Virus record (IMG/VR): IMGVR_UViG_2541047845_000008
Source of the DNA: a virus
Taxonomy: Duplodnaviria > Heunggongvirae > Uroviricota > Caudoviricetes
Direction: 5' to 3' (one strand)
Length of the DNA: 15,043 nt
The notes beneath the pieces are model-generated. The model made no database searches. It was not told where the DNA came from and saw only the letters and a program-made list of their open reading frames with translations. Numbering within the stretch: position 1 is the stretch's first letter; every line of letters starts with the position of its first letter. Shown in pieces: positions 1 to 13,825 of this stretch. The position numbers and the translations under genes are program-made.

Positions 1-165
1 ATGGCAAAGCCGATCATCACGCTCAATGGCCTAAAAATCGTCATTATGTTGGGAATGCTGGTCATTATTCTCTGCGGTATCCGTTTTGCCGCCGAGATCA
101 TCGTGCCGTTTATTCTCGCATTATTTATTGCTGTTATATATAACTTATTTCACTTAACACATTGA
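1..165 (+). pseudogene. tqsA: Truncated 5' fragment of an AI-2E family transporter gene (TqsA/YdgG-like), 54 codons, interrupted by the element
   Basis: Frame-1 ORF from ATG at 1 to TGA at 163-165 (below the ORF-track size cutoff). Translation [46 protein letters not shown] is a hydrophobic N-terminal membrane segment that I recall as the start of E. coli TqsA. The reading frame then runs into YNLFHLTH-stop in AT-rich sequence from about nt 136-141. Identification is from memory, not a search. Confidence 0.5.
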
Positions 166-564
166 TTTAATTAAATAATTTGCACCACAAAAAGTGCCAA
201 AAATCGCAAAATGACTACACCAGTAACTACACCGTTCGGTGCACTGTATGAAACAACGTGGAACAAATAGACACAAGAAATATACAGGCAGATCATCTTT
301 CCAGGGGGAAGCGCACCAATTCATGAGGGGCGTTGCTGTCGATATGGGGATCTCCACCTACCTGGATTTTTTTCCGGTTAAACGTTAATCAGGCTGGTGG
401 GTTTTACCTGTTCTGTAGGAGTGGTCATTATGACCATCCCTTATATCGTCCGAATGCCGGACGAAGGCACACATCAACCGTAACGAAAATCGTTATGGTT
501 GCCTTGATGGTCTGCGTGGTCATTATGACCATTCAGCCAATGACCTTAATCAGAATTTTTCGCT

Positions 565-588
565 AAAAAATGACGTTGGTCACGTCAT
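565..588 (-). terminator. Putative rho-independent terminator ending the long leftward operon
   Basis: Palindrome TGACG-TTGGTCA-CGTCA at about 571-587, flanked on the plus strand by an A6 run (565-570) that reads as a U-tract on the minus strand. It lies about 70 nt downstream of the last operon gene (stop at 659). Stem is short, so confidence is modest. Confidence 0.35.
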
Positions 589-658
589 CCGGAAAGCACA
601 AAATCACGTCAATTTTTAATGGATGGTTAAACCGTCTTTATCTCGATGTCCGTACGTA

Positions 659-940
659 TTACGTACGCAGTCGTTCCGGCTTCTTCCAGTGGTACGTTAT
701 TTTCTCCTTCTCCCGATACATCTCCACGCGGCGACGGTAGGCCAGCAACTCAAGAACTCTGGTTCGTATGTTGCGCATATCCACGCCATTAAGTTCTATA
801 CCATCACGGCGCATCACCTCAGCAACAACACGCGCATAGTTTTCGGCTGTCACGCTGTCCGGCTGCGTGGCCTGTTCGTCAGCCTGCTGGCTGATTCCGG
901 CAACGCGGCGGATTAATCCCGTTATTTCGGCTTCTGTCAT
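659..940 (-). CDS. Hypothetical protein (93 aa), last gene of the packaging operon
   Basis: ATG at 940 preceded by a GAGGT Shine-Dalgarno; starts 14 nt after the TerL stop. No family recognised. Confidence 0.55.
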   Translation of the reverse strand: MTEAEITGLIRRVAGISQQADEQATQPDSVTAENYARVVAEVMRRDGIELNGVDMRNIRTRVLELLAYRRRVEMYREKEKITYHWKKPERLRT

Positions 941-953
941 GCTGCTGACCTCA

Positions 954-2615
954 TTACACCCCGCTAAATTCTTCCAGTTTCTGGCGGTGGCTGTCGCTTA
1001 TATCAAAAGCAAAATCCTCATGCTCTGCCTGGAATGTACCAAACGCCATCAGCGCCGCCACGCTCGGGTCTATCTTGTTCGGTGATTTTTTCTTGTTCGG
1101 CTTGATATTGGCGTTCGCGTCACTCTGCATCACGACGTTACTCATCGACCAGGACAACACCGGATCGCCACGATGCACAATCACCCTGCGGTTAACAAAA
1201 ACTTCGAACGATTTCGCCGCCGGACTGAATCTGAGGTAGGTTTGCGGGAACGGCTCCACCTCAAAACCTGCCCCCTGTAATTGCGTTCTGAGATGCGTGG
1301 CGTTCCACGTATCAAAGCCCACCAGCCTGATATTAAATTTCTCCGCGTCCTGCATGATGTCATCTCTGATCCGGTCGTAATCAATGCAGTCGCCAGGCGT
1401 TGTGCGTATCCAGCCCGCTTTAGCCCACTGACGATAGACAGCGCGGTTTTTATTGGCGGGGTTCTGTAGCTGGAACTCCGGCAGATAATGACGGGAAACC
1501 AGCATAATGGTTTTACCGACCGGAAAGGCATAGCACACGCTGGAAATATCGCTTGTGGATGATAAATCCAGCCCCGCGTAACACTCCTGGCCGTGTAAAT
1601 CTTCCTCCGTGAACGTTCCGGCGCACTCCGCCCATGCACCGTTACCCATCCACGGCGTAGCCCCCTGACACCAGATATTGAATCGCTTGGTGAGCATTTC
1701 CACCCACTGCGACGGAATACCCCGCGCTTTCTGGATGGTTGAGGCCAGTTTTTCACGATCGACGGAAACATCGATATTTGGATTCGCCTTTATCCACATC
1801 GCCGGATCGTCAACCTCGCTTTCATCATCCAGCTCGTAAATCAGAACGAACATGGATTCGTTCATCTCTTCACCATCCAGTATCTGACAGCAATAGTCAT
1901 AGTGTTGTTTACAGGCTGAAACAACGTTGCTCCCCGATGTGGTGATGGCAAATAACAGCCCCTCCGGACGCGCCCCCATCCCCATATCAAGTGCGGAATA
2001 AACCCCGTTGTCTGGGTGCAGGTGATATTCATCCACAATGGCAAGACTCGGGTTTGTCCCCTCAATGGTTGCCGCTTTTGCTGCCAGTGGCTTTAACAGG
2101 CTGTTGGTTTTCGGGTGTATCACCTTATGCGCCTGAATATTCACCCGCCTGCGTAACGGTCGGGATAAAAGGCACATCTGACGCGCATCATCAAAGACGA
2201 TCCGCGCCTGGTCACGGCTCACCGCTGCGGTGTAGATATCCTGCTGACCGTTCTCCATAATCAAAAACCAGTTAGCCAGAATCGCGGCGGTCGTGGATTT
2301 CGCATTTTTGCGCGGCACTTCGATAAAGGCGCTCGTGTATTTGCGCCGTCCGGTGGCCTTAACCTTAAAGCCGAGGATGCACGCAAAGGCGAACTGCTGC
2401 CACGGCTCCAGCTCAATGGGTCTGCCACGCATCGGCCCTTTTACGTGCGCGCACACCCTGGAAAAGGCAATAAACCGCTCCACAACCTCACGATCGAACG
2501 TGTAAAGGGGGCTTTCAAGGTCCGAAAAGTACCGTTTAACGGCCTGTTTCAGCCGTTTACAGGCCGGAATTTTGCCCGTTTTTACGTCTTCTGCGTACTT
2601 ATTCCAGGCGGTCAA
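954..2615 (-). CDS. Phage terminase large subunit
   Basis: 553 aa. N-terminus MTAWNKYAEDVKTGKIPACKRLKQAVKRYFSDL is typical of HK97-type large terminases, with an ATPase P-loop-like PRKNAKST and an acidic C-terminal nuclease region. Apparent TTG start at 2615 with GAGGA Shine-Dalgarno, overlapping the TerS 3' end by 17 nt. Confidence 0.9.
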   Translation of the reverse strand: MTAWNKYAEDVKTGKIPACKRLKQAVKRYFSDLESPLYTFDREVVERFIAFSRVCAHVKGPMRGRPIELEPWQQFAFACILGFKVKATGRRKYTSAFIEVPRKNAKSTTAAILANWFLIMENGQQDIYTAAVSRDQARIVFDDARQMCLLSRPLRRRVNIQAHKVIHPKTNSLLKPLAAKAATIEGTNPSLAIVDEYHLHPDNGVYSALDMGMGARPEGLLFAITTSGSNVVSACKQHYDYCCQILDGEEMNESMFVLIYELDDESEVDDPAMWIKANPNIDVSVDREKLASTIQKARGIPSQWVEMLTKRFNIWCQGATPWMGNGAWAECAGTFTEEDLHGQECYAGLDLSSTSDISSVCYAFPVGKTIMLVSRHYLPEFQLQNPANKNRAVYRQWAKAGWIRTTPGDCIDYDRIRDDIMQDAEKFNIRLVGFDTWNATHLRTQLQGAGFEVEPFPQTYLRFSPAAKSFEVFVNRRVIVHRGDPVLSWSMSNVVMQSDANANIKPNKKKSPNKIDPSVAALMAFGTFQAEHEDFAFDISDSHRQKLEEFSGV

Positions 2616-2955
2616 GCTCGTCCTCTTCTTCTGTTTCCGGTGGATTTTTACGGCGGCTTATCGGGTCAAAACCGAGCAAGGAGGCCATTTTTATCATCAC
2701 TCTTTCAGCGTCGGATTTTGCGCTTAATGCGGGGTTTCTGCTCTCGCCGCCCTGACTGTTAACAATGCTGAACCCGCGCGCCGCAAGGTCTGCGACGGCT
2801 TTCCGGTAAATGGAGTAGTTGACACAATACAGTTCCAGATTGCTCCAGTCGGCGGGGGTCAGGTCTCCCCGTTCCGCAAGCTGCCGCGATTTTTCCCGCC
2901 ACTGCTTCACGGCGATGTCATCCAGGTAGGCGGGGGCTTTCGGTGGTCTTGCCAT
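2599..2955 (-). CDS. Phage terminase small subunit (P27-family-like)
   Basis: 118 aa, MARPPKAP... N-terminus and acidic C-terminal tail; positioned immediately upstream of and overlapping TerL, downstream of HNH and the putative cos region. Confidence 0.8.
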   Translation of the reverse strand: MARPPKAPAYLDDIAVKQWREKSRQLAERGDLTPADWSNLELYCVNYSIYRKAVADLAARGFSIVNSQGGESRNPALSAKSDAERVMIKMASLLGFDPISRRKNPPETEEEDELDRLE

Positions 2956-3243
2956 GCTTATTTTTCGTCAGATTATTTTTCAAAAAATTCCCGTGCATAA
3001 AAATTTGAGGAGGCGTTCGGTGTCCGGCAGGGACGGTTTCGTCCTGAAAACCACCCCCACCCCCTCTGACGGCCTCACCAGCGATTGCGAAAACATTCCA
3101 TGACCTCGCGGTCACGGTCGGTTAATCGCTTCGCTGTGGTGCGTTCTGTGCGCCCTGTCCTGTTGGCTTTGTGCCCTGTCTCCTGTGTCTTCCATGCGTC
3201 ATGCTGCCTTATCAGTCCACGAATCAGCCTGTTTTGTTCCTGT
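2956..3243. other. Putative cos / terminase recognition region
   Basis: The only sizeable non-coding gap (about 290 bp) inside the packaging module, between HNH and TerS, where HNH-dependent cos phages of the HK97 type place cos. Contains palindrome GGACG-GTTT-CGTCC (about 3031-3044), a C-rich tract CCACCCCCACCCCC (about 3052-3065), and two near-identical pyrimidine-rich direct repeats CTGTGCGCCCTGTCC / TGTGCCCTGTCTCC (about 3146-3185). Confidence 0.35.
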
Positions 3244-3684
3244 TCAGTCATCATCGCCATACATCCAGTCGTTACGGTGTGCCGCCCGTTCTTCCTGCTC
3301 GCGATACATGCCCGCTTTACGGTTTGCTTTCGTGGCGGGATCTTCCCGCGTCGTCTTACGGTTGTGGCACGTCTGGCACAATGCCTGGTGATTCCACTCA
3401 GGCCAGAAGAGAACATCACCGCCACCATTGATGGGGATAATGTGATCCACCACAAAGGCTGGCGTATAAATACCCTCAGCCAGACAACGCACACATAACG
3501 GATTTTTTTTCAGGTACATGGCGCGGTATTTGTCCCACTGTCGGGAATACCCACGTGCGCGGCGGTGTCCCCGTCTGGCATCCTCTGCACGCCATGCAGC
3601 CCGCCTGTGCTCTTCACACTTGCCGGACTTCACGCGCTTATTACAGCCCGGCTCAGTGCATCGCCTTAATGGTTGCCACGGCAT
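3244..3684 (-). CDS. HNH endonuclease (terminase-associated)
   Basis: 146 aa with paired cysteine clusters (CTEPGCNKR..KC and LCVRC ... CQTCHNRK) and HNH-like motif VDHIIPINGGG ... WNHQALCQTCHN. Start codon overlaps the stop of the upstream connector gene. Confidence 0.9.
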   Translation of the reverse strand: MPWQPLRRCTEPGCNKRVKSGKCEEHRRAAWRAEDARRGHRRARGYSRQWDKYRAMYLKKNPLCVRCLAEGIYTPAFVVDHIIPINGGGDVLFWPEWNHQALCQTCHNRKTTREDPATKANRKAGMYREQEERAAHRNDWMYGDDD

Positions 3685-3980
3685 CAGTACACCCCCACAT
3701 CACGATAAACCGACCAGAGCATCCCTACAGCCAGCGGGATTTCTTTTGTGTCTGCATCCCCGACCGTGGCCCTGTATTCGTACAGTTGCGACACGTACAT
3801 CATGCAGCCAATCTTTATGGCTGGCGTGAACTCCAGCCCGTCATCAAAGCGCCTGCCGATGTGTTTCTGGCACACCTCAAGCGCGGCGGCGATGTATCCG
3901 CTGATTAACTGGTCTTCCTCATTGCCATCAATGCGGCAATGGAGTTTCACTTCTTCCAGGGTGATTAATTCTGCTGTCAT
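3684..3980 (-). CDS. Phage gp6-like head-tail connector protein
   Basis: 98 aa; N-terminus MTAELITLEEVKLHCRIDGNEEDQLISGYIAAA matches the characteristic LITLEE-K-HLRID...D-LI-.YI-AA pattern of gp6-like connector proteins. Overlaps neighbours at both ends. Confidence 0.75.
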   Translation of the reverse strand: MTAELITLEEVKLHCRIDGNEEDQLISGYIAAALEVCQKHIGRRFDDGLEFTPAIKIGCMMYVSQLYEYRATVGDADTKEIPLAVGMLWSVYRDVGVY

Positions 3981-4315
3981 CGTGGCGCACCTGTTTTACA
4001 AAGAATTTCCAGACGAGTCCTTTTACCGTCGGGAACGGGGGGGCCAACAATATCAAGCTCATTGCCGGAATAAGCCCCCGTGAGTACCCGTATCCGGCTG
4101 GATGCCGTAACATCCCCACGAAAACGGATCCAGACTCTTACGGTTGCCTGTGCCGTTTCTGCACCTGCGGTCATGCGTTCCCGTCCGCTGATCCCTTTCA
4201 CCTCCGCCCATACGGTGGCAACATCCTCCCATGTGCTTTTCATTGCACCGGAAGGGAGGCGGGAAAGTTTCGCGCTCATGATGACAATGCGATCCCTCAT
4301 GCTCCCCGCTCTCAT
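3977..4315 (-). CDS. Phage head closure / head-tail adaptor protein
   Basis: 112 aa; size, position after the portal gene and the motif VWAEVKGISGRE...TVRVWIRFRGDV resemble head-tail joining proteins. ATG at 4315 overlaps the portal stop. Confidence 0.7.
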   Translation of the reverse strand: MRAGSMRDRIVIMSAKLSRLPSGAMKSTWEDVATVWAEVKGISGRERMTAGAETAQATVRVWIRFRGDVTASSRIRVLTGAYSGNELDIVGPPVPDGKRTRLEILCKTGAPR

Positions 4316-5526
4316 GATTTGCCCTCTTTATCGTCCTTTACTTCGATCTCCTGTTTCCAGGCCTGGCTGAACTCATCGCCACCATCACGCGGCGATAATC
4401 CCTCACGTTCGCGGGCTTCGTTCGGGCACATAACGCCGGACTTGATGCCGCGTTCATAGGTGGCAAAGCGTTCGCCAGGTGTGGCCCGTAACAGGTCCGC
4501 GCTGTCAAACTCCACCTGATACCGGATACCAGGTACAGGCGAGGCCACCAGCAAAGCATTTTTTATCTGCTGCTCAAAGTTCGCCAGCCACGGGCGCATC
4601 GTCATGGTCAGAAACGCGCGGCTTGCCTCGCTGAAATTGCTGTAGGTGCTGTTGCTGTATTCCTGCAGAAAAATCGGCGAGACGTTGAACATTCGGGCGA
4701 TGTCTTCAATGGTGAAGCGACGGGAGGCCAGCCATTCAGCATCCTGGTTACTCATGCCAAGCTGCTGATAGCTCATACCCCCTTCAAGAATGGGCGTTTT
4801 TCCGGCGTTTCTGGCTCCTTTGTAGCGTTCCAGTGCGGCTAATGCCTGTTTGCCCTTCACGCCGTCCAGCCATTCGCCTGACGTGATAACCCCTGCTGCC
4901 ATCATGCCATCACGCATCACGCTCGCGCCGTGGCGCTGTTGGGCCAGCCCAAGCCCCAGCGATTCGCGGCAGATGGTCACAGGTGAGCGCCCCATAAAGC
5001 CGTCATCCGTGGAGTAACGAAGGTGGAGAACCTCCCACGGTAAATAGTTGCGGGTGTTTCCGCTGTAAGCGTCAGTGATGCGGTAACGCCAGTTATGTTC
5101 CCCTGTCTGCTCAACATTCACCGACTGCGGCGGGTAAGGGTGCAAAGCCACCGGAAAACCATCACGCCCCCACTGAATCACCGCATAAGCATTACCGTTT
5201 AACAGGCAGTGGCGGACCATCATTCGCTTAAACTGATAGGGCGTCTGCCACGCGTTCGGGCGCTCGTTGAGGATATGATCGACCGGATGAGAATCAAGCC
5301 ACTCGCGGGCCTCCTTCCCCTTCTCATTGCGTACCAGGTACAGGTAGCATGGCATAGTAGCCACCGCCTCAGAGATGACCGTGACGGCGTTCATGACGGC
5401 GGGGAGTGATTCCGCTGTCCCCGATGATACGTACTCACCCGCCCCCGTGTTCGATGTGCCAGCCAGCGCCATAAATTCATCCAGCGTAAGGCTGCGATGC
5501 TCTTGTTTTCGTCTGAAAGGCCACAT
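4312..5526 (-). CDS. Phage portal protein (HK97 family-like)
   Basis: 404 aa; length, position adjacent to the prohead protease gene and conserved portal-like core; acidic C-terminus. Confidence 0.85.
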   Translation of the reverse strand: MWPFRRKQEHRSLTLDEFMALAGTSNTGAGEYVSSGTAESLPAVMNAVTVISEAVATMPCYLYLVRNEKGKEAREWLDSHPVDHILNERPNAWQTPYQFKRMMVRHCLLNGNAYAVIQWGRDGFPVALHPYPPQSVNVEQTGEHNWRYRITDAYSGNTRNYLPWEVLHLRYSTDDGFMGRSPVTICRESLGLGLAQQRHGASVMRDGMMAAGVITSGEWLDGVKGKQALAALERYKGARNAGKTPILEGGMSYQQLGMSNQDAEWLASRRFTIEDIARMFNVSPIFLQEYSNSTYSNFSEASRAFLTMTMRPWLANFEQQIKNALLVASPVPGIRYQVEFDSADLLRATPGERFATYERGIKSGVMCPNEAREREGLSPRDGGDEFSQAWKQEIEVKDDKEGKS

Positions 5527-5527
5527 A

Positions 5528-6103
5528 TCACACCCCCGCTAAATCCGCCCACCAGCGGCGATTATCCGCGCGTGGCATTTTTTCGGGGTGCTGCTCATAC
5601 AGGGAACGGCGGGCCAGATCCACGCCGGAATCAGGGTAAGCCGGTACGGATGTAACGGTAATTTCGTACAGTTCCGCCACCAGCACGGTGCGCACGCATG
5701 GATCTGTTGTGGTATCCCATACATCCTTACGGGAACGAAAGCCAAAGCTCATGCCGGATATATCACCACGTTTAACCAGTTCGATAACGTCCCGCCCTGT
5801 GCTGGTATCCGGTGGGGTCAGTTCAAAGCGTAACCCTGTGTCGTCCTCTTCCAGTTTCAGCGTGCCGGAACGGGTGCGCCCCAGTAACATGCTGTGGTCA
5901 TGCTCATACAGGCCACGAACGTCATTACCCGCCGCCAGCCACTCACTGAACGCCCCCCGCTGGAATTTTTCGTAAAACTCACCCCATAGCAGATCAGAAA
6001 GGTTATTCCAGCGAACAACGTAACCCGTCAGCGTACTGGCTCCGCTGGTGGTGATTTCTGATGACCGGATTTCCATGCTCTTTTTCATATTTTTTTCACC
6101 CAT
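5528..6103 (-). CDS. Prohead maturation protease (HK97 family-like)
   Basis: 191 aa; lies between the major capsid and portal genes. Alternative ATG starts at 6088 (GGTGA Shine-Dalgarno) or 6076 are possible. Confidence 0.8.
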   Translation of the reverse strand: MGEKNMKKSMEIRSSEITTSGASTLTGYVVRWNNLSDLLWGEFYEKFQRGAFSEWLAAGNDVRGLYEHDHSMLLGRTRSGTLKLEEDDTGLRFELTPPDTSTGRDVIELVKRGDISGMSFGFRSRKDVWDTTTDPCVRTVLVAELYEITVTSVPAYPDSGVDLARRSLYEQHPEKMPRADNRRWWADLAGV

Positions 6104-6111
6104 AAAACACC

Positions 6112-6135
6112 AAAGGGGCTTTTTAGCCCCTTTTT
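6112..6135 (-). terminator. Hairpin with flanking T-runs between capsid and protease genes (attenuator/terminator)
   Basis: Perfect 6-bp stem GGGGCT / AGCCCC with 4-nt loop at about 6115-6130, with T-rich flanks on both strands, immediately 3' of the capsid stop at 6139. Confidence 0.45.
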
Positions 6136-6138
6136 CTG

Positions 6139-7308
6139 TTAATCGCCGTTTTTCATCTCGAGGACTTTTATCGCGCGGGAGTCAACAACCCCGCCGCCGA
6201 TGTATTTATCCGTGTGTACCTTGTAGAAGCCCGGCTCTGTAATGTTGTCCGGTCGGGTACGGATCCCCGTTTCATGGTCAACGATGAAATAACCGCGCTT
6301 AAAGTCACCGACAGCCAGCGGCGTTTTGCCTTTGCCGATGTCCGGCATACTTTCCAGGTAATAAACAGGACGGCCCAGCAATGTGTCAGGTGCGCCCTCT
6401 TTGAGGCTGTCACGCCATACGTAATCACCGCTCTGGTTTTTCAGCTTCTGCAATGCTGCCGCAGTGTTCGAGTTCATCACCCACACGGCGTTCTTACGGT
6501 ATTTCGCTTTCAGCTTGTAGAGGATGTCGATCAGTTCGTCCGCTGTAATGGCGTCGGTTGTTGTAACCATTTTTTCAATGGTGCCAAAGGCGCGGGCTTT
6601 GTCGTTGTTGGTATCACGGGTGTAATTCAGGAAACCCTTCGGCTTGCCAGTACCGTCACCATTTACAAAATCATCTTCTTCGGTCGTGGCGAACGTGTCG
6701 GCGATTTCAGACGATAACCAGCCCAGCACATCCACTTCTGAAAAATCCAGGATTTCCTGCGTGGTTTTCGGGTAGGCATAGATCGGGTTAAGTTTGATGC
6801 TTACGCGCTCAACTTTCGGGGTTTCTGTTTCGGTTCGCTTGTTGCCCTCAGTGCCACGCCCCACCGTTGCGCCACCTGTGGAAACCAGTTTCTGGTATTC
6901 GTTTGATTTCGCCGTTTTCACCGTCGCAATCATTCGCATGACGCTTTCATCACTCAGTAACCGCATAACCTCGCGATCAAGCTCAGGGATAACGGTATAA
7001 CCACCGTCCTTGCCGCCGTTGGTGGTGGTGGATAATGAGCGAACGTCACCCGTTACGATGTAGTTGCGAAGTTCTGCGGGGTCAGTGGTCTGGCTGGCTT
7101 TACCTGGCTTGCTGCGCTCTTCGTCGGCAACGGCTTCAAGGCGGGAAATGTCTTTATCGAGGGATTCAGCTTTAGCGCGTAATTCGTCAAATTTTGCGCC
7201 CTCGGCGTCGTTAAGGCTGCGGTTTTCTTTTTCCGCGTTCTCCAGCATGTCGCGCATCTGATTTTTGATGGCGGTTTTCTGCTGGCGCAATTCGATAATT
7301 CTCGGCAT
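6139..7308 (-). CDS. Major capsid protein, HK97 fold
   Basis: N-terminal coiled-coil delta-domain-like region (MPRIIELRQQKTAIKNQMRDMLENAEKENRSL...) followed by a capsid core. The ORF track extends to 7353 on a TTG; ATG at 7308 is the more likely start (389 aa). Confidence 0.9.
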   Translation of the reverse strand: MPRIIELRQQKTAIKNQMRDMLENAEKENRSLNDAEGAKFDELRAKAESLDKDISRLEAVADEERSKPGKASQTTDPAELRNYIVTGDVRSLSTTTNGGKDGGYTVIPELDREVMRLLSDESVMRMIATVKTAKSNEYQKLVSTGGATVGRGTEGNKRTETETPKVERVSIKLNPIYAYPKTTQEILDFSEVDVLGWLSSEIADTFATTEEDDFVNGDGTGKPKGFLNYTRDTNNDKARAFGTIEKMVTTTDAITADELIDILYKLKAKYRKNAVWVMNSNTAAALQKLKNQSGDYVWRDSLKEGAPDTLLGRPVYYLESMPDIGKGKTPLAVGDFKRGYFIVDHETGIRTRPDNITEPGFYKVHTDKYIGGGVVDSRAIKVLEMKNGD

Positions 7309-7558
7309 AAAAAAAAGTCCTGATGCAAAGAGGAAAACACCAGGACGCGGCAAGACTCACGGTACGAGAACAAAAAGAAATGCACACCGATGCAGGCTTC
7401 CCGCCTGTTAACGCTGATGAGATTAACAGGCGGGAAAATGGTCCCAGCGTCCTGGCAACAGTGGCGAGAATAACCACGGTTCGGGCCTGATAAAATAAGC
7501 CAGCCATGCCGCTGAACAACCACGAACAACCACGCACAAATAATTTACAAAAGCTGAC

Positions 7559-7584
7559 AAAAAAAGCCCTGGTTAAACCTGGGC
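7559..7584 (-). terminator. Rho-independent terminator after the replication/regulation segment
   Basis: Stem-loop GCCCTGG-TTAAA-CCTGGGC (one mismatch) followed on the minus strand by U7 (plus-strand A7 at 7559-7565), directly 3' of the gene ending at 7592. Confidence 0.5.
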
Positions 7585-7591
7585 TGGGCCA

Positions 7592-7852
7592 TTAATTAAC
7601 GTCTTCCGGTGGTACTGATTGCACTGTGCGGGGCTTCACCTTTTCCAGATATGCGATGAGCGCATCAATCTGTTCAGGACCAGCCGCCAGAATTTCACCG
7701 GAAAGCGTGCTGCGTAAAAAACCATGATGATCAACCCAGAATATCGCCCCCGCCGCCAGGTGCTGGCGATAACGCTCCGTTGTCGTGTGGGCCGGATGTT
7801 CAAGGCCGAATAATTCGCGGTGTCGTTTAATTTCCTCTGTGGTTACTGGCAT
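7592..7852 (-). CDS. Hypothetical protein (86 aa)
   Basis: ATG at 7852 with AGGGGG Shine-Dalgarno; overlaps the 3' end of the upstream PerC-like gene by 10 nt. No family recognised. Confidence 0.55.
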   Translation of the reverse strand: MPVTTEEIKRHRELFGLEHPAHTTTERYRQHLAAGAIFWVDHHGFLRSTLSGEILAAGPEQIDALIAYLEKVKPRTVQSVPPEDVN

Positions 7853-8100
7853 GTTTCCCCCTTTAATTTATCTAATCCCATTTCAGCATAAACACGATCA
7901 GCGGCTTTTTTAATATCGCTGAAATTGTCCGGCCCGAGTGCTGGCCTTGTCGATTTTCTGCAACATTCCAGCCGTCGCATCGTGATGTGCTCCCGTTCCT
8001 TGTCTGTCTCCACCAGTAGCATGACTTCACCCCATCGCGCCGACGCTCTCCGGTAAAAGCCTTTCGCCTCGAGTTCTTCCGCTATGCGGTCATGTACCAT
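7843..8100 (-). CDS. PerC-like transcriptional activator (85 aa)
   Basis: From ATG at 8100 (GAGGGTGA Shine-Dalgarno; the track's longer ORF starts on a GTG inside ssb). The motif MVHDRIAEELEAKGFYRRASARWGEVM ... C..C ... DNFSD ... MGL matches my recollection of PerC/Pch-family small activators. Not search-verified. Confidence 0.5.
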   Translation of the reverse strand: MVHDRIAEELEAKGFYRRASARWGEVMLLVETDKEREHITMRRLECCRKSTRPALGPDNFSDIKKAADRVYAEMGLDKLKGETCQ

Positions 8101-8110
8101 CGTCACCCTC

Positions 8111-8521
8111 TCAGAACGGAATATCATCACCGTAAGGGTCATCGCCTCCCGCTGGTGGCTGATTACCCTGTGTGCCTGTGGTCTTGCGTCGGCTCCCACC
8201 AGGTCGCGCCGTTCTGGCACTGATTACGCTGTCTGCAATAACCTGCCAGCCCTGCCGCGTTTCCCCGTTCTGTCCGGTCCACTGGCTGACCTGCATCGTG
8301 CCGGATACGCTGGCAACGTCGCCTTTTTGATGTTTAGCCAGGAAGTCGGCCTGCTTACCAAATGCCATCACCGATAGCCATAACGTAGCCTGCCCATCCT
8401 GCGCCTGACTACATGGCAACGATACCGCCATACGTGCCAGCGTCATTGGTGTGCCCTTGCTGGTCTGTTTTACCTGCGGGTCGTCCACCAGCCGCCCGTA
8501 AGCTGCTATCTGTGCTGTCAT
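8111..8521 (-). CDS. ssb: Single-stranded DNA-binding protein
   Basis: 136 aa; OB-fold-like core (AAYGRLVDDPQV ... W..V.AFGKQADF ... KGD.V.V.G ... W) and the hallmark acidic C-terminal tip ...GGDDPYGDDIPF. Confidence 0.85.
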   Translation of the reverse strand: MTAQIAAYGRLVDDPQVKQTSKGTPMTLARMAVSLPCSQAQDGQATLWLSVMAFGKQADFLAKHQKGDVASVSGTMQVSQWTGQNGETRQGWQVIADSVISARTARPGGSRRKTTGTQGNQPPAGGDDPYGDDIPF

Positions 8522-8775
8522 GATTCCACCTCTCCGGTTTTAACGTTGATGGTTGTTACCTGTTCCGCTTCGGCAATCTCCCGTTCTGTCAGCGTGGCAA
8601 AGTTTGCCGCCGCCGTGGTCATGAATGCGCTTATCAGGTCGGGATGTGCTTTCGCGTATCCTTCCCCCGTGTTGCGGTCGATGATTTTTATCGCCACTCT
8701 CAGCCAGTGCTCTGTAAGGTCAATGGCGCGGTTATGCTGCTTCTTCTGATTATTAAGTTTTCCTGATGTGCGCAT
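8518..8775 (-). CDS. Hypothetical protein (85 aa)
   Basis: ATG at 8775; stop overlaps the ssb start. Sits between the origin iterons and ssb. No family recognised. Confidence 0.5.
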   Translation of the reverse strand: MRTSGKLNNQKKQHNRAIDLTEHWLRVAIKIIDRNTGEGYAKAHPDLISAFMTTAAANFATLTEREIAEAEQVTTINVKTGEVES

Positions 8776-8823
8776 TTTTATTTTTACCCCCTCGTTTAAA
8801 AAGTTTTGAGTTGTGCCTCCCCT

Positions 8824-9050
8824 TGTCTACCTTATCTACCTTACTGGCTCTCATGCCAGTAATGGCGCGGCTTTCAGCGGGGTAGAGTGCTTTTATCCAC
8901 TATCTACCCCGTATCTACCTCCCTGTCTGATTCAGGTAAAATCAGGTAGAGAGGGTAGATAGTAGGTAGACAGTGAAAAAAGGCTGTCTACCTAAGTTAA
9001 TATACTGAATTAAATGTATTTTTCTTTACTCAGGTAGACAGGGTAGACAG
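8824..9050. repeat. Iteron array and AT-rich segment: putative replication origin
   Basis: Eleven copies of an octamer with core TCTACC / GGTAGA in a non-coding stretch just 3' of the primase gene. Forward copies (TGTCTACC or TATCTACC) at about 8824, 8833, 8901, 8912, 8985; inverted copies (GGTAGA-CA/TA/GA/GT) at about 8881, 8945, 8954, 8965, 9033, 9043. An AT-rich spacer (about 8994-9030) is flanked by inverted iterons. Confidence 0.7.
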
Positions 9051-9063
9051 CCATTGCAAAAAA

Positions 9064-10818
9064 TTATAAAAACGCGTCGCAATCGTCTGTTGTTATTGCG
9101 TTAGTCTGCGTTACTCCCTTAACTTTCCGCGTAATATATTCATGTCCGTAAACTTTCGCGGCTGGCTTCATAGCCTTGCCAAAGTCATTTACGTTTAGCG
9201 GTTTGCTCCTGCCTGCGTATGCCATAAACGCCAGATAGACGCGGTAAAGGCTGTTCCTGGTCGTGTACTTCACTGAATCGCCACCGCCCCCCATCATCAG
9301 GCCGCGCGCTTCCTCCAGAAAATTCAGGAACTGGCAAAACTCAATAACCGGATCCGTCTGTTGCTTTATTGCCAGTGCTTCATCACCGTCACGCTGTTCC
9401 AGTAGTAAAGCCCGTGCCTTCTCAGGGTCGGTAAAGTTCGCCAGCAATCGGCGGATAATGACAGGGATTTCAGCCGCAATCTTTTCCGGTAGCTCCCTGT
9501 CTTTTTCGGCCTCACTGACGATATTGTCGAAACGGAAAATTACGCGACGACGTGACACACCTCCGGCCCGTTCGGTGAATATCATCGGATTGTTATTGGT
9601 TGCCAGCACCACCGCCCTGATTACCGCCGTAAAACGCTTTTCATATTTCGGGTTAATTTCCACGGGGTCGCCGCCCGTGATTTTCTTGATGCCCGTTCCT
9701 TCGCCTGTATATTTCGGCTGGTCAGCCAGGACGATAAGACGACTCCCGACAACCTGCGCACGTCCACCAGCATCATCAAGCGATGTCATTTCAGCGCTTA
9801 CCGTGTTCTGTTTCCCTGCCAGAAGGCTGGCTATGTGCGTGAATGTACTTTTACCGCTCCCGCCATCTCCGGTGGCCTCAATAAACATCTGCCAGTCGTA
9901 CCGGTTCGCCATAATCATGTACAGCGCGGCACATATACGCATCATCTTGCGCGGGTCTTTTCCGGCTGCGTGCTCAAGCCATTTATGAAAGTTTGGCGCG
10001 TTATCGCGGATGTTCTCCCCTGGTGCTGGTGGCGTGTACTCAATGCCGTTGTGCGTGGTGATCCAGTTCTCCGGCGTGTGCGGGGAAAATTCCCCCGTTT
10101 TCAGGTCAAGCGCACCATTGGCGAACGGCAGCAAATCGCCGGACGGCTCGCCCATTGGTTCGGCAATAACTTTTAACGCTTCCACGGCGTTATTGATTAC
10201 GCGCTTGCTGAAAGTGGCCCTGTGCTCTGAATAGATCGCCACCATTTCGCGGCTAAGTTCCATTGTGCTGACCGGACACCATACCCCGCCGCGCCATACG
10301 TGAACGATTTCACTTTCAGGATGTACGCAAACGCCATCAAAGCGATCGGCAAGCAGCTGCGCGCGCTCACTGTCCGCCATCTGCGAAAGTTGCGCCTTTT
10401 GCTTTACCGGAAGCTCAATGACCAGACCATCAGAAAGATTCTGGCGCTCACGGGCCAGATATTCGCGCCAGTTCTCCACCTTCTGACCGTGCATACCCTC
10501 AGGATAAAAATTTGCATCCTGTACGCCTGCCGCCGCCAGCTTCTGGCCAATCGCCTTTATCATTACTGGCGCAAGATATCCGGCCCTGAATATGCGCACG
10601 GATTTTCTGCCTTCCGGCACAATTTGCAGCTTATCCAGTTCTGATAACTGCTGCTCCCCAAGCCACACAGGAGGCTCATTATCTCCGGCCATACGCGCAT
10701 CATGTTCCTGCCATTGTTTCGCGTGTGCCCAGGCATCACTACCCGCAAAAATAATGACTTCTGTTCCTTTGTGTTTTATGCCGCGTGACTGCTGTTTTAC
10801 GTTCGGTGCCAGTTTCAT
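9064..10818 (-). CDS. DNA primase/replicase, P4 alpha-like family
   Basis: 584 aa with Walker A GDGGSGKST and surrounding NTPase motifs; architecture resembles satellite primase-helicases. Its ATG overlaps the stop of the upstream small gene (ATGA). Confidence 0.85.
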   Translation of the reverse strand: MKLAPNVKQQSRGIKHKGTEVIIFAGSDAWAHAKQWQEHDARMAGDNEPPVWLGEQQLSELDKLQIVPEGRKSVRIFRAGYLAPVMIKAIGQKLAAAGVQDANFYPEGMHGQKVENWREYLARERQNLSDGLVIELPVKQKAQLSQMADSERAQLLADRFDGVCVHPESEIVHVWRGGVWCPVSTMELSREMVAIYSEHRATFSKRVINNAVEALKVIAEPMGEPSGDLLPFANGALDLKTGEFSPHTPENWITTHNGIEYTPPAPGENIRDNAPNFHKWLEHAAGKDPRKMMRICAALYMIMANRYDWQMFIEATGDGGSGKSTFTHIASLLAGKQNTVSAEMTSLDDAGGRAQVVGSRLIVLADQPKYTGEGTGIKKITGGDPVEINPKYEKRFTAVIRAVVLATNNNPMIFTERAGGVSRRRVIFRFDNIVSEAEKDRELPEKIAAEIPVIIRRLLANFTDPEKARALLLEQRDGDEALAIKQQTDPVIEFCQFLNFLEEARGLMMGGGGDSVKYTTRNSLYRVYLAFMAYAGRSKPLNVNDFGKAMKPAAKVYGHEYITRKVKGVTQTNAITTDDCDAFL

Positions 10819-11114
10819 TTTTTACCCCTGAATCCTTTAATCATGGTTTTCATCTTCTGAATATTGGCGCGTGCTTTCTCCCTGCTGGTGGGCACGTTAC
10901 GCGGTACGGCCTGCACAAGAGAAAAATCACGGTCGAACTGATAAACAGGCATCACGCAATCATATTCGTAGCCTTCACGACGGTAGGTTACGCGCCGTTC
11001 CTCCACGCCCTTAATCATTACCGTGCCGCCGTACTTATCGCGGTAAATATCACCGCGCATGAATTTAGTGCGAGTTTTGCCACTGGCAGTTAAGCCAGAA
11101 TATTTAAGTTTCAT
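10815..11114 (-). CDS. Hypothetical basic protein (99 aa)
   Basis: ATG at 11114; translationally coupled to the primase gene. No family recognised. Confidence 0.55.
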   Translation of the reverse strand: MKLKYSGLTASGKTRTKFMRGDIYRDKYGGTVMIKGVEERRVTYRREGYEYDCVMPVYQFDRDFSLVQAVPRNVPTSREKARANIQKMKTMIKGFRGKK

Positions 11115-11119
11115 TATTT

Positions 11120-11353
11120 TTATTCTCCGGTGTGGGGCGCTTTATACTGGTCGTGTAATGTCTCTATTTCCTGCAACTCATTTATTACAGGCTCAAGAAG
11201 CGTTATTAATGCCGTGACAATCCTTGATTTCTGTTTATCACGTTCATTATCTCCAAGCGTTTCAAGACATATGCGCAATATTTCCAACATATTTTCACTG
11301 TGAGAAAGTGCAAGAAATGCGCGGTCTATTGTTTCGTGGTAAATATCACGCAT
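11120..11353 (-). CDS. Hypothetical acidic protein (77 aa)
   Basis: ATG at 11353 with GGGGA Shine-Dalgarno, immediately after the stop of the upstream gene. No family recognised. Confidence 0.5.
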   Translation of the reverse strand: MRDIYHETIDRAFLALSHSENMLEILRICLETLGDNERDKQKSRIVTALITLLEPVINELQEIETLHDQYKAPHTGE

Positions 11354-11354
11354 A

Positions 11355-11576
11355 TTAATCCCCGTCCGTCGTTTTTCTTAAAATAACCTCTGTCACGAAA
11401 TCAGCATAATCGGCGGCGATATTCAGTACATCAAGCACCGTTGATTTATATTCTCTCGTGGAAAGTAAGAAAAAAGCCGCTCTAATAAGTTCTGGCATTG
11501 ACGAAAGCGCATCAGCCGCATCATCAGGAACGCCGGAAAATTCCTGTTTCAGGGAATTAAAACGATTATCACGCAT
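11355..11576 (-). CDS. Hypothetical acidic protein (73 aa)
   Basis: ATG at 11576 with GGGGGG Shine-Dalgarno; overlaps the upstream gene by 8 nt. No family recognised. Confidence 0.5.
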   Translation of the reverse strand: MRDNRFNSLKQEFSGVPDDAADALSSMPELIRAAFFLLSTREYKSTVLDVLNIAADYADFVTEVILRKTTDGD

Positions 11577-11934
11577 GTTTACCCCCCTGAATGACCTGAT
11601 AACCGCAACTGGTCAGCAACTCGATAAATTCCGGCAGTGTGCCGAAACAGCAATCATCACGCAGCCGTTCGCAGGATACCTCGACGCCGTTTTCGTAGTG
11701 ACTCACCATACATCCGGTAAAATGCAGATCATCATCGTGATGGCTCGTTGACGGCTTAATCAGTCGCGCACGTTCCGCCAGTTCCAGCAATGCTTCAACG
11801 CTTCCGGCAATTGCACCATCCGGCAGGTGATAATTACGCACTATGCGCCCGTTCTCCACATTGACCAGCAACTGCCCGGTAAATTTCTCGTCAAACTGAA
11901 TGCTGTTAAGGTCAGAAATTGACAGGTTATGCAT
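11569..11934 (-). CDS. Hypothetical protein (122 aa)
   Basis: Preferred start is the ATG at 11934, preceded by a perfect AGGAGG Shine-Dalgarno at 6-nt spacing (the track ORF extends to 11952). Cys/His-containing; no family recognised. Confidence 0.55.
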   Translation of the reverse strand: MHNLSISDLNSIQFDEKFTGQLLVNVENGRIVRNYHLPDGAIAGSVEALLELAERARLIKPSTSHHDDDLHFTGCMVSHYENGVEVSCERLRDDCCFGTLPEFIELLTSCGYQVIQGGKHA

Positions 11935-12151
11935 GGTGCACCTCCTGCACATCAGCCATGATAATTTTTCCGGCCTTATCCAGTGCCTGATCGGCTTTTA
12001 GCTGCACAAATGCTAAATAATGGAAGATGCATTCTGATTCTCTGGCTGCGTGTTTATGCGCCCTGTCAGCAATAACAGAAATATCAATCAGCGCATGCAT
12101 TAGCGTTATGATGGCTTCGGCGGCTGCGTCCGGACGGGTGTTATTGCACAT
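11927..12151 (-). CDS. Hypothetical protein (74 aa)
   Basis: ATG with GGAGG Shine-Dalgarno; overlaps the downstream gene by 8 nt. No family recognised. Confidence 0.5.
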   Translation of the reverse strand: MCNNTRPDAAAEAIITLMHALIDISVIADRAHKHAARESECIFHYLAFVQLKADQALDKAGKIIMADVQEVHHA

Positions 12152-12347
12152 GGCACACCTCCTGACGAATACGGGCAGCGAATACCATCACGCAGCCAGC
12201 CGGGGATTGCTGGCGTGCTTCCTGTTCGCTGGTGGCCTCAATGGTAATCACGCGCGGTTGTGCCGTGCTCAGGGCGATAAAACGCCAGATGTATTTATTC
12301 AGGTTGTGCGAATCCCGCCCTTGCGGGTGTGTGGTATGATTTAACAT
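12141..12347 (-). CDS. Hypothetical protein (68 aa), first gene of the leftward operon
   Basis: Only the 3' 68 codons of the 354-aa track ORF are plausible: ATG at 12347 with GAGGT Shine-Dalgarno, just downstream of the predicted leftward promoter. The rest of that ORF runs antisense through the regulatory region. Confidence 0.4.
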   Translation of the reverse strand: MLNHTTHPQGRDSHNLNKYIWRFIALSTAQPRVITIEATSEQEARQQSPAGCVMVFAARIRQEVCHVQ

Positions 12348-12443
12348 AGCTACCTCGATACTTTCGCTATCGTTGGTGGTTAGAAGCCCCGTTACTGCTC
12401 CTACAGTGCGGGGTTTCGTCGTTTCTACACCTTGCCTTAATAA

Positions 12444-12497
12444 GGTGTTGAACACCAATTTAAATCGAGGTGTTAAACACGTCAAGTGTTGAACACT
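12444..12497. promoter_or_regulatory. Three palindromic operator-like sites in the divergent control region
   Basis: GGTGTT-G-AACACC (12444-12456, perfect), GGTGTT-A-AACAC (12469-12480) and AGTGTT-G-AACACT (12485-12497, perfect); centre-to-centre spacing about 25 and 16 bp, between the leftward operon and the rightward small regulator gene. Confidence 0.6.
12457..12485 (-). promoter_or_regulatory. Candidate sigma70 promoter of the leftward operon
   Basis: On the minus strand: TTGACG (-35, plus 12485-12480), 16-17 nt spacer, TTAAAT/TAAATT (-10, plus about 12463-12457). Operator sites overlap the -35, spacer and start region. A rightward candidate (TTGAAC at 12489-12494, 17 nt, CATACT) lies back to back. 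Confidence 0.4.
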
Positions 12498-12546
12498 TAT
12501 TTTTTTTCCTGCATACTGCATTTGTTTTTTATGAAGGGTGCTCAAC

Positions 12547-12726
12547 ATGGCGACAAAAGCAGTAAACGCAAAATCACAAACAGTTGCGGCAAGGGTTCCA
12601 CATGAAGTTATGAACAATGTTGAGGCGGTAAAAATGCCCGGCGAAAGTACAGGGCAGTTTGTTACAGCTGCATTAAAGCGGGAAGTTGAATACCGCCAGC
12701 GTCGCAAGGCCAAAGAATCAGAATAA
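12547..12726 (+). CDS. Small ribbon-helix-helix-like DNA-binding protein (putative island regulator)
   Basis: ATG at 12547 with AAGGG Shine-Dalgarno (the track starts on GTG at 12538). The pattern beta-strand (QTVAARVP), helix (HEVMNNVEAV), turn (KMPGES), helix (TGQFVTAALKREVEY), then a basic tail fits the RHH (Arc/CopG-like) fold. Encoded next to the operator array. Confidence 0.5.
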   Translation: MATKAVNAKSQTVAARVPHEVMNNVEAVKMPGESTGQFVTAALKREVEYRQRRKAKESE

Positions 12727-12783
12727 TCACTATCAGCGCCGTGGCGTGAGGTACTCCGGCGCATTGCTTTACAGGTCAGTACT

Positions 12784-12993
12784 ATGAGCAAAAAACACCG
12801 ATCAGCAGATGAGATTTTTGCAGAACAACGAAGATTGCTTTTGCAAAGTATCATTTCACGCCAGCAAGAGAAGGCGCGAGCTAAACAAATGCCACCAAAT
12901 ACAGAACCAGCGCCTACAAGATTTGCGCTTGATGACTTTCTCGATAAACACCCCAGGGTAATGAAAGCAAACAAAAACCGCCCACCAGGCTGA
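12784..12993 (+). CDS. Hypothetical protein (69 aa)
   Basis: ORF downstream of the RHH gene on the same strand, followed by a strong terminator. No family recognised. Confidence 0.4.
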   Translation: MSKKHRSADEIFAEQRRLLLQSIISRQQEKARAKQMPPNTEPAPTRFALDDFLDKHPRVMKANKNRPPG

Positions 12994-13088
12994 TCACATT
13001 GCCCACCAGCCTGATAGCGGCTATCATCCCCGTGCTTATGTTTGAGATCACACACACAAACGGCGCAGCGGGTTATCTGTTCAGAAAG

Positions 13089-13116
13089 GCGGCTCCATTT
13101 CGGGGCCGCTTTTTTT
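13089..13116 (+). terminator. Rho-independent terminator of the rightward regulatory transcript
   Basis: GC-rich stem GCGGCTCC / GGGGCCGC (8 bp including one G-U) with loop ATTTC, followed by T7 (13110-13116). Confidence 0.6.
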
Positions 13117-13262
13117 ATTCCTGAAAAACCCCAATTTTGTTGTTTTTCAGTTTCACCAGGGCGAACGAATCCCCGCCCACGTTCTGGCGTATATTCAATC
13201 TTCATGGTTATAGCTCTGTGTTCAGATGATTGATGTGTGGCGGCTGCGTGCCGCCAGCGTGA

Positions 13263-13451
13263 TTAATGAACTGCCTTGCAGCTATCCTTCCAGGCCAGAA
13301 CCTCGGATAAAGACCAGCCAACGGAACGACCGCCAAGTTTACGACGTGATGGGAATTGTCCGGCCTTTTCCAGGCGGTAGCGACACGTACGGCTAAGGCC
13401 GGTTAGTTTTTCGCATTCTTTTTCACGTATAAACCGATCAGTGCTTAACAC
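13263..13451 (-). CDS. alpA: AlpA-family transcriptional regulator / excisionase-like protein
   Basis: 62 aa; motif EKLTGLSRTCRYRLEKAGQFPSRRKLGGRSVGWSLSEVLAW is the characteristic AlpA helix-turn-helix signature. GTG start with AAGGGGG Shine-Dalgarno; directly downstream of int. Confidence 0.85.
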   Translation of the reverse strand: MLSTDRFIREKECEKLTGLSRTCRYRLEKAGQFPSRRKLGGRSVGWSLSEVLAWKDSCKAVH

Positions 13452-13825
13452 TATTGCCCCCTTTCGTTTCTTAAAGAGTTATTTCGTGTTCTATTGCGTT
13501 GGGATGTGTCTGATTGTGTCAGGATGATTCAGAGTTGGCAAATGTTGAGGCCGTATGGTTTACAGAAAGAGGAATAATCAGGATAAAATCATTTAATTTC
13601 ATGTTAATACAAAGGCATAAAATATTGTTTCATGCCTTTTTTCTCGCTATTTAAAGAGTGATTCGCTAGTGTATAAAAAACCAGCAACACATTAAAAATC
13701 AGCTACTTATAAATCCGTACACTTTTTCGCCTCTTGTTCGTAGTTGTTCCGCATTGTTGCTCATTGTTGCACGTTGTATCTGTTCGCATATCCAGTATGC
13801 GCATACTGAAAAAACACGAAAAAAA

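Follow-up and report, generated by a model that had tools for sequence, protein, structure and literature searches.

A cf-PICI phage satellite integrated in the tqsA gene of Escherichia coli

EcCIEDL933, which corresponds to CP-933C, O-island 51 and Sakai Sp7, is the prototype of the cf-PICIs and has a size of 15.4 kb (bioRxiv 10.1101/2022.09.08.507074; PMC3378721). The study on this class describes cf-PICIs as elements that make their own small capsids and take only the tails from a helper phage. For EcCIEDL933, the same study reports helper induction, as well as tail-less small capsids that acquire helper tails, with the phages HK106 and HK446 (bioRxiv 10.1101/2022.09.08.507074). It also states that cf-PICIs use six attB sites in E. 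coli, and that EcCIEDL933 has int, alpA, and rep in common with EcCICFT073 and EcCIED1a (bioRxiv 10.1101/2022.09.08.507074). EcCIEDL933 sits between phoQ and roxA, just past the stop codon of phoQ, with the core AAATATGTCC; since this site is intergenic, it breaks no gene. Flockhart 2012 placed the ED1a relative of CP-933C 'between ydgD and ydgG' (PMC3378721). Judged by this published description, the position of this element (EcCIED1a) is the tqsA locus.

The gene tqsA has itself been reported as an integration site. In the sections of their study that deal with it, Bobay, Rocha and Touchon (2013) count tqsA among 15 additional genes broken by prophage integration and consider that, without prophage disruption, it would count as a core gene (PMC3603311). 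The abstract of Mageeney 2020 newly counts tqsA among the cases of 'regulated gene integrity', and the part of this study that gives the TIGER results lists Eco282.16.tqsA, Eco557.15.tqsA, and Eco33.11.tqsA as domain-disrupting islands of 11-16 kb (PMC7192596). The same source, in the part that covers them, gives the prophages known to act as gene-splitting switches, i.e., Listeria phi10403S in comK, the skin element in sigK, and the Stx phages of E. coli in mlrA, where a tyrosine or serine recombinase splits the gene and precise excision can restore it (PMC7192596).

We analyzed a stretch of 15,043 nucleotides, hereafter called the window. A preliminary description, made from the letters alone, had read its beginning as the N-terminus of a TqsA-like AI-2E transporter that breaks off near codon 46 and stops after 8 more codons, with a left junction at 136-141, AT-rich DNA past this junction, int at the far end, and integration in a coding gene and not at a tRNA. 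This reading agrees with what we find. A base-by-base comparison gives no mismatch between nt 1-137 and nt 1-137 of tqsA (b1601) of K-12 MG1655, and the sequences diverge from nt 138, which puts the break between 137 and 138, in codon 46 of 344. The codon is ATT in tqsA and ATA at the junction, with Ile kept. The ORF that opens on the ATG of the window then runs through 46 TqsA residues and 8 element-encoded residues to a TGA at 163-165 (Table 1). The GC content of the first 300 nt is 38%, against about 50-58% further into the window; the tyrosine integrase gene lies at the opposite end; and a scan of the whole window revealed no tRNA or tmRNA gene. In the uninterrupted reference, K-12 MG1655, tqsA sits between mdtJ and pntB. 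The neighbours here are homologues of mdtI/mdtJ (named in relatives, and with Multi_Drug_Res matches in L011) and pntB/pntA, and the 300 nt upstream of the window in a near-identical genome (L011) have 1 difference from K-12. The full identity of nt 1-137, the conserved mdtJI-tqsA-pntBA locus, and the match to PDB 7NB6 identify the interrupted gene as tqsA: the ORF does match a transporter N-terminus, and in place of an unbroken full-length copy, the remaining tqsA follows beyond the element.

The element that follows the junction resembles EcCIEDL933, which covers 73% of the window at 88% nucleotide identity. Gene order is the same in both, from int through alpA, small ORFs, DUF4222/RgdR, primase, SSB, and PerC/PchE to the major capsid protein (MCP), and from there through protease, portal, head completion, connector, HNH, TerS, and TerL to orf93. 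Identity at the amino acid level is 98% for TerL, 97% for the portal, 100% for AlpA, and 93% for Int, and both elements have about 15 kb and lack tail and lysis genes. Besides the insertion site, they differ in the C-terminal part of the primase, in the MCP (68% amino acid identity), and in the accessory region beside alpA. The PICI core module (int, alpA, primase), the capsid genes of cf-PICIs (major capsid protein, protease, portal, and head-tail connectors, by Pfam), and their packaging genes (HNH, TerS, and TerL, also by Pfam) are all present. Among the about 24 ORFs taken as genes between 659 and 15043, no tail or lysis family was matched in Pfam or PHROGs. The window stops at the integrase start codon and is thus without the last 196 nt of the element, which hold the int promoter region, the P arm, and the attR core. 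With one core copy counted, the element has 15,102 bp, in line with the about 15 kb of cf-PICIs. By every sequence-level criterion, it is a cf-PICI.

Table 1. Features of the window (15,043 nt).
Feature	Position	Strand	Evidence and remarks
tqsA 5' fragment, codons 1-46 of 344	1..137	+	0 mismatches to K-12 b1601; native upstream region just outside the window
Fusion ORF, 54 codons (46 TqsA residues + YNLFHLTH + stop)	1..165	+	Translation
attL core TGCTGTTAT, crossover region	129..137		Second copy in near-identical genome; same in L001, L005, L006
cf-PICI body	138..15043		Collinear with Sakai Sp7/CP-933C = EcCIEDL933, hallmark proteins all matched
P' arm-type repeats, ACTACACC x2, 12-nt period, putative integrase arm-binding sites	214..233	+	Only two in the window, 0.18 expected
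Two copies of GTGGTCATTATGACCAT, each with a 15-bp perfect palindrome TGGTCATTATGACCA	421-437, 516-532		Sequence repeat
Conserved 93-aa ORF downstream of terL	659..940	-	phrog_1561, E = 5.6e-56; hypothetical in all relatives
Large terminase subunit	954..2615	-	Pfam TerL_ATPase, TerL_nuclease; 98% aa identity to Sp7
Small terminase subunit, P27 family	2599..2955	-	Pfam Terminase_4, E = 1.3e-23
HNH endonuclease, packaging cofactor	3244..3684	-	Pfam HNH
Head-tail connector	3684-3980	-	Pfam Phage_connect_1
Head completion protein	3977-4315	-	Pfam Phage_HCP
Portal protein	4312..5526	-	Pfam Phage_portal, E = 8e-92
Prohead serine protease	5528..6103	-	Pfam Peptidase_S78
HK97-type major capsid protein	6139..7353	-	Pfam Phage_capsid, E = 5.5e-72
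PerC-family regulator, PchE homologue	7843..8220 (maximal ORF)	-	Pfam PerC, E = 7e-36, aa 41-121
Single-stranded DNA-binding protein	8111..8521	-	Pfam SSB
Primase/helicase, PICI replication protein	9064..10818	-	D5_N + DUF5906
DUF4222 protein, RgdR (ECs1581) homologue	10815..11114	-	Pfam DUF4222; 86% aa identity to Sp7 ORF at ECs1581 position
354-aa accessory protein, repressor-like C-terminus	12141..13205	-	phrog_6196 'transcriptional repressor', aa 263-353, E = 4e-55
AlpA-type excisionase/activator, 62 aa	13263..13451	-	phrog_2790 'excisionase and transcriptional regulator'; 100% aa identity to Sp7 copy
P4-type tyrosine integrase, 405 aa	13826..15043	-	Pfam Arm-DNA-bind_3 (PF13356), Phage_integrase (PF00589)

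Several small ORFs stand between the alpA region and the DUF4222 gene in the order that leads from int to terL. The 354-aa ORF adjoins alpA, where it replaces the Icd-like and YlcI/YnfO genes of the relatives. It has no match in Pfam or PADLOC, and phrog_6196 covers only its last 90 residues, leaving the N-terminal 260 unmatched. The PerC-family ORF, which corresponds to PchE as annotated in Sp7, probably has its real start at an ATG near 8100. RgdR was found to activate the LEE type III secretion system in EHEC (Flockhart 2012, PMC3378721), and the satellite may affect the regulation of host virulence through its RgdR and PchE homologues. The two GTGGTCATTATGACCAT 17-mers lie 95 nt apart in the non-coding DNA that separates attL from the last ORF of the packaging module. 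One or two copies are kept in all five related elements checked, and their palindromic structure is probably that of a protein-binding site. An Rfam scan of the whole window returned nothing, and the non-coding region 138-650 matches no known RNA. Over positions 1-1000, promoter and terminator scans gave sites no more numerous than in shuffled controls.

The right junction lies outside the window itself and was read in a near-identical genome, GCA_964039095.1 (contig CAXJDP010000001.1, 5.4 Mb). Its geometry is that of the window, with 15043 nt between the int and fusion-peptide matches (2706273-2721315), and it differs from the window at 1 of 5218 nt and 2 of 2665 nt, i.e., by 3 mismatches in an overlap of about 7.9 kb, so that it is either the source of the window or a near-clone of this source. 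The preliminary description had suggested that the tail of the gene and a repeat of the junction be sought beyond nt 15043, and both are there. A second copy of TGCTGTTAT occupies positions 188-196 past the window end (composite 15231-15239), and the remainder of tqsA, 188 nt past the end, stands behind this second 9-bp core. After the right core, the near-identical genome continues with tcttaacccgctggtg..., which is tqsA from codon 47 on. The sequence predicted beyond nt 15043 is accordingly ...GATAAAATGCTGTTATTCTTAACCCGCTGG..., then tqsA codons 47-344. This 3' remnant is open from A44 to the native stop (301 codons), contains PF01594, and differs from K-12 by 13 of 907 nt and by 1 amino acid.

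The same description had left it undecided whether the gene is inactivated or receives a replacement 5' end from the other end of the element; the evidence favours inactivation and speaks against replacement. In the frame of tqsA, the right junction reads ...AAA AAC ACT AAA TGA TAA AAT GCT GTT ATT CTT... (K N T K * * N A V I L) and continues past attR as ...N A V I L N P L V Q H M.... The in-frame TGA TAA is one codon ahead of A44, and since these two stops are just upstream of attR, the element donates no substitute N-terminus to TqsA. A consensus scan, which is weak evidence, found no sigma-70-like promoter facing the 3' remnant. The gene caller finds a single possible start for the remnant, M54, with a product of 291 aa, and the PGAP annotation of every related complete genome inspected has both halves of tqsA as incomplete pseudogenes. 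A 60-codon 'hypothetical protein' was annotated by PGAP at composite 15044-15230 (EC100 locus L001, 34885-35067). It starts inside the start region of int, is directed toward tqsA, whose frame it shares, and terminates with TGA TAA one codon before A44; most likely, it is not a real gene.

In the cryo-EM structure of TqsA (PDB 7NB6), the main contact of the pentamer on the cytoplasmic side is made by helix H1 (T7-F29), and helix H2 spans A31-W57 (PMC9475539). The break falls in the middle of H2, the helix that contains attB (codons 43-46). We infer that the split tqsA is inactivated and non-functional. Its 5' product would be a 54-aa stub with H1 and half of H2, and the 3' remnant, devoid of promoter and start, would give a product that lacks H1, the main pentamer contact. 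In principle, a truncated TqsA might still be made from GTG51 or ATG54 through read-through transcription.

The attachment sites could be described at the level of single bases. Beyond the 9-bp core, the likeness between element and target extends imperfectly to nt 144, where TGCTGTTATaTaTAAC in the element is matched at 14 of 16 positions by TGCTGTTATtCtTAAC in the attB of tqsA. The uninterrupted attB junction is TTATTGCTGTTATTCTTAACCC, and the predicted attP junction is GATAAAATGCTGTTATATATAAC. When the left arm of attL is joined to the right arm of attR, the result is the K-12 sequence, and excision is therefore predicted to restore tqsA precisely. The P' pair of ACTACACC is 77 nt from the core and has a counterpart in a P pair upstream of int (composite 15083-15102). 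Both pairs are kept in all related elements, and their presence on the two arms fits the Arm-DNA-bind_3 domain of the integrase, whose putative binding sites they would be. The integrase has the arm-binding and catalytic domains of P4-type tyrosine recombinases, with the motifs ARTVEL, HDIRR, TGH, and RVY at aa 244, 331, 355, and 364, and its ACTACACC pairs flank a short core. Of the R-K-H-R-H-Y set typical of such enzymes, we take R245, H331/R334, H357, and Y366 as its putative catalytic residues.

The attP predicted from attL and attR, GATAAAA-TGCTGTTAT-ATATAAC, is a 23-mer that was found once in IMG/VR, in IMGVR_UViG_3300045988_152974 (L014), a contig of 11,098 nt from a virome. Because the ends of this contig overlap by 119 nt, L014 is a circular assembly, and with attP in a circle it represents the capture, in excised form, of an element with an int/att module of the type of the window. 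The order of its parts is the predicted one (right arm, int, core, left arm), and its int region has 96.6% nucleotide identity to that of the window. L014 is a shorter relative, a non-cf PICI of about 10,979 bp with an intact attP: it has the int/att module in common with the window, but, unlike the window, it lacks the terminase, portal, and HNH module and has homologues of the lambda-type capsid E and decoration D proteins instead. The evidence on attP thus comes from a related non-cf PICI with the same int/att module and not from the window's own element. It supports the assignment of the core and demonstrates that, in principle, the interruption can be reversed.

Another locus, L013 (GCA_910593955.1, 2501-5165), has the same 54-aa TqsA fusion peptide and the same junction next to a different element, with split Phage_capsid_4 ORFs and a ClpP-like protease. 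As the element differs at an identical junction, the att module is common to distinct satellite types. A search of species-representative genomes with the attL 20-mer gave a sole match (L015), inside a large ORF of a rumen Eubacterium MAG. This MAG is unrelated and the match lies inside a large ORF, and we rejected it as a sign of taxonomic spread and attribute it to chance.

The insertion in tqsA is recurrent. Of 5426 complete E. coli genomes, 5424 match the 5' part of tqsA. In the same 5426 genomes, a 201-nt probe with attB at its centre is unbroken in 5171 and split in about 252, so that interrupted and uninterrupted alleles coexist in the species and about 4.6% of the genomes carry an insertion at tqsA. 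The identical tqsA-element junction is present in 240 of the 5426 genomes, and the exact 54-aa fusion peptide in 3283 blocks of a public assembly collection. Three more elements at this site were inspected, in the pig isolate EC100, the human STEC isolate 2011C-4315, and RM10809-3 (O22:H8). Over the first 600 nt of the window, their identity to it is 84-92%, and they have the same element-side ATATAACTTAT. Together with that of the window, these make four divergent elements of 14.9-15.9 kb, in unrelated strains, with an identical breakpoint and core. The integrases of the tqsA site form a tight clade, being 95-98% identical among themselves, against 88-93% to the phoQ-site class. In the strain 2 HS-C (NZ_CP038180.1, 2229699-2230107), the attB probe matches in two pieces over 409 bp, in a gene annotated as 'AI-2E family transporter', which points to a small tqsA insertion or duplication (about 200 bp) unrelated to the satellite.

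Relatives at the phoQ/roxA site are more frequent, with 585 genomes occupied versus about 250 for tqsA. The nearest whole-element match among complete genomes, in IAI39, is located after the stop codon of phoQ, between phoQ and roxA, and Sp7 and elements in FORC_042 and STEC299 are at this site as well. Two genomes, NZ_CP116067.1 (DETEC-S792) and NZ_CP022279.1 (STEC299), match both the tqsA and the phoQ junctions and seem to carry two related satellites, one per site. The phoQ-type elements of the loci L004, L007, L008, and L009 have near-identical cf-PICI backbones, and their integrases are 88-93% identical to that of the window. Their attP arms, including the ACTACACC pairs, are nearly those of the window, and about 30 bp around the core differ, with AAATATGTCC as the core versus TGCTGTTAT in the tqsA type. 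In a small sample of 4 tqsA-type and 3 phoQ-type integrases, we counted 20 class-specific positions, of which 12 are in aa 1-38, in the arm-binding domain, and 8 at 117, 125, 129, 170, 196, 233, 244, and 310. The two types may represent a natural re-targeting comparable to that of lambda and HK022.

Very probably, then, a cf-PICI of 15.1 kb integrated site-specifically in tqsA at codon 46 and split the gene without repairing it. The P4-type Int would have recombined attB, inside codons 43-46 of tqsA, with an attP of the element consisting of the core TGCTGTTAT flanked by two arm-type ACTACACC pairs. Int and AlpA could excise the element after induction by a helper phage, which would restore tqsA precisely. 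A chimeric assembly or a chance similarity as the origin of the junction deserves practically no credence: nt 1-137 are 100% identical to tqsA, and the recurrence of the junction in hundreds of genomes, including 240 complete ones, and of the exact fusion peptide in 3283 collection blocks rules out an assembly artefact. The element might also use tqsA as a secondary, off-target site, with the primary site of its integrase elsewhere, e.g., beside phoQ, and in the part of their study on this question Bobay et al. (2013) read sparsely occupied gene-disrupting sites in this way (PMC3603311). Integrases 88-93% identical do use the phoQ/roxA site, which is the fuller of the two (585 genomes vs about 250). 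We nevertheless hold this very improbable, as the attP core of the tqsA-site elements matches attB at 9/9 and 14/16 positions and differs from the phoQ-type core AAATATGTCC, the tqsA-type integrases are a separate group with 20 class-specific positions, and all cases examined have the same breakpoint. This matched core, distinct group, and invariant breakpoint contradict an off-target event by a phoQ-site integrase.

Two other readings concern the fate of the gene. At many in-gene attB sites the element supplies a surrogate 5' end, and a functional, N-terminally swapped TqsA could arise here if the int-proximal end did the same. The 60-codon PGAP ORF at the right end points to tqsA in its frame, and the 3' remnant is an intact frame of 301 codons. 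This outcome is nonetheless scarcely credible: the 60-codon ORF stops one codon before A44 and does not resemble TqsA residues 1-43, the scan for promoter-like sites gave none, and the sole start of the gene caller, M54, removes H1 and H2. The relevant part of Mageeney 2020 likewise scores tqsA as 'disrupted without restoration' (PMC7192596). A repaired tqsA is contradicted by the in-frame stops before attR. Alternatively, the interruption could have been selected as a reversible switch, in the sense of regulated gene integrity or active lysogeny, with integration turning AI-2 export off and phage-induced excision turning it on, for which tqsA was proposed as a candidate by Mageeney 2020 in the abstract (PMC7192596). 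Both halves of tqsA are undecayed, excision would, by sequence, restore attB exactly, an excised circular relative exists, and both alleles coexist in the species. We still regard a selected switch as unlikely, given that the insertion is present in only about 4.6% of the genomes and that close relatives use the harmless intergenic phoQ site, which suggests that the choice of site is not driven by the function of tqsA. Besides, the satellite is packaged after induction and the helper normally lyses the cell, so that a restored tqsA would matter little, and E. coli has other proteins of the AI-2E family, e.g., YdiK (PMC9475539). If there were such a switch, carriers would be null for tqsA and show changed AI-2 levels or biofilm behaviour, spontaneous or helper-triggered excision would restore signalling in a subpopulation, and phage-satellite dynamics would be tied to quorum sensing.

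A satellite integrated in tqsA without repair of the gene thus joins what has been published on this site. The insertion site and its gene-breaking effect are already known. In the IGEs of Mageeney 2020, as described in the part of the paper that treats them, the UPF0118/AI-2E domain of tqsA is disrupted without restoration (PMC7192596), as it is in the window, where integration inside the coding sequence at codon 46 of 344 is followed by TGA TAA and no surrogate start. Judged by size and site only, and from the parts of the two papers that describe them, the tqsA islands of Mageeney and Bobay belong to the same element family as the window (PMC7192596, PMC3603311). These parts name the site, give no core sequence or arm sites, and are older than the cf-PICI class (PMC7192596, PMC3603311). 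No paper in the literature that we searched pairs 'tqsA' with 'PICI'. As far as we could see, the anatomy of the att sites at the level of bases and the explicit link between cf-PICIs and tqsA are only implicit in print. Unlike the prophage cases of comK, sigK, and mlrA, the element inserted in tqsA is a phage satellite, and the restoration of the gene is predicted from sequence.

The locus is a clean, resolved case of a phage satellite that uses a protein-coding gene as attachment site and knocks it out, in itself of little direct importance. Now that its att sites are resolved (core and arm sites, and attP both as predicted and as observed), excision can be assayed directly by PCR, and closely related integrases with different cores lend themselves to work on the way in which tyrosine integrases switch targets. 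The AI-2 exporter TqsA would be missing from about 1 in 20 sequenced E. coli, among them STEC lineages such as O103:H2 and O121, and this frequency of carriers bears on how quorum-sensing and biofilm phenotypes are read across strains, as well as on the annotation of tqsA as a 'pseudogene'.
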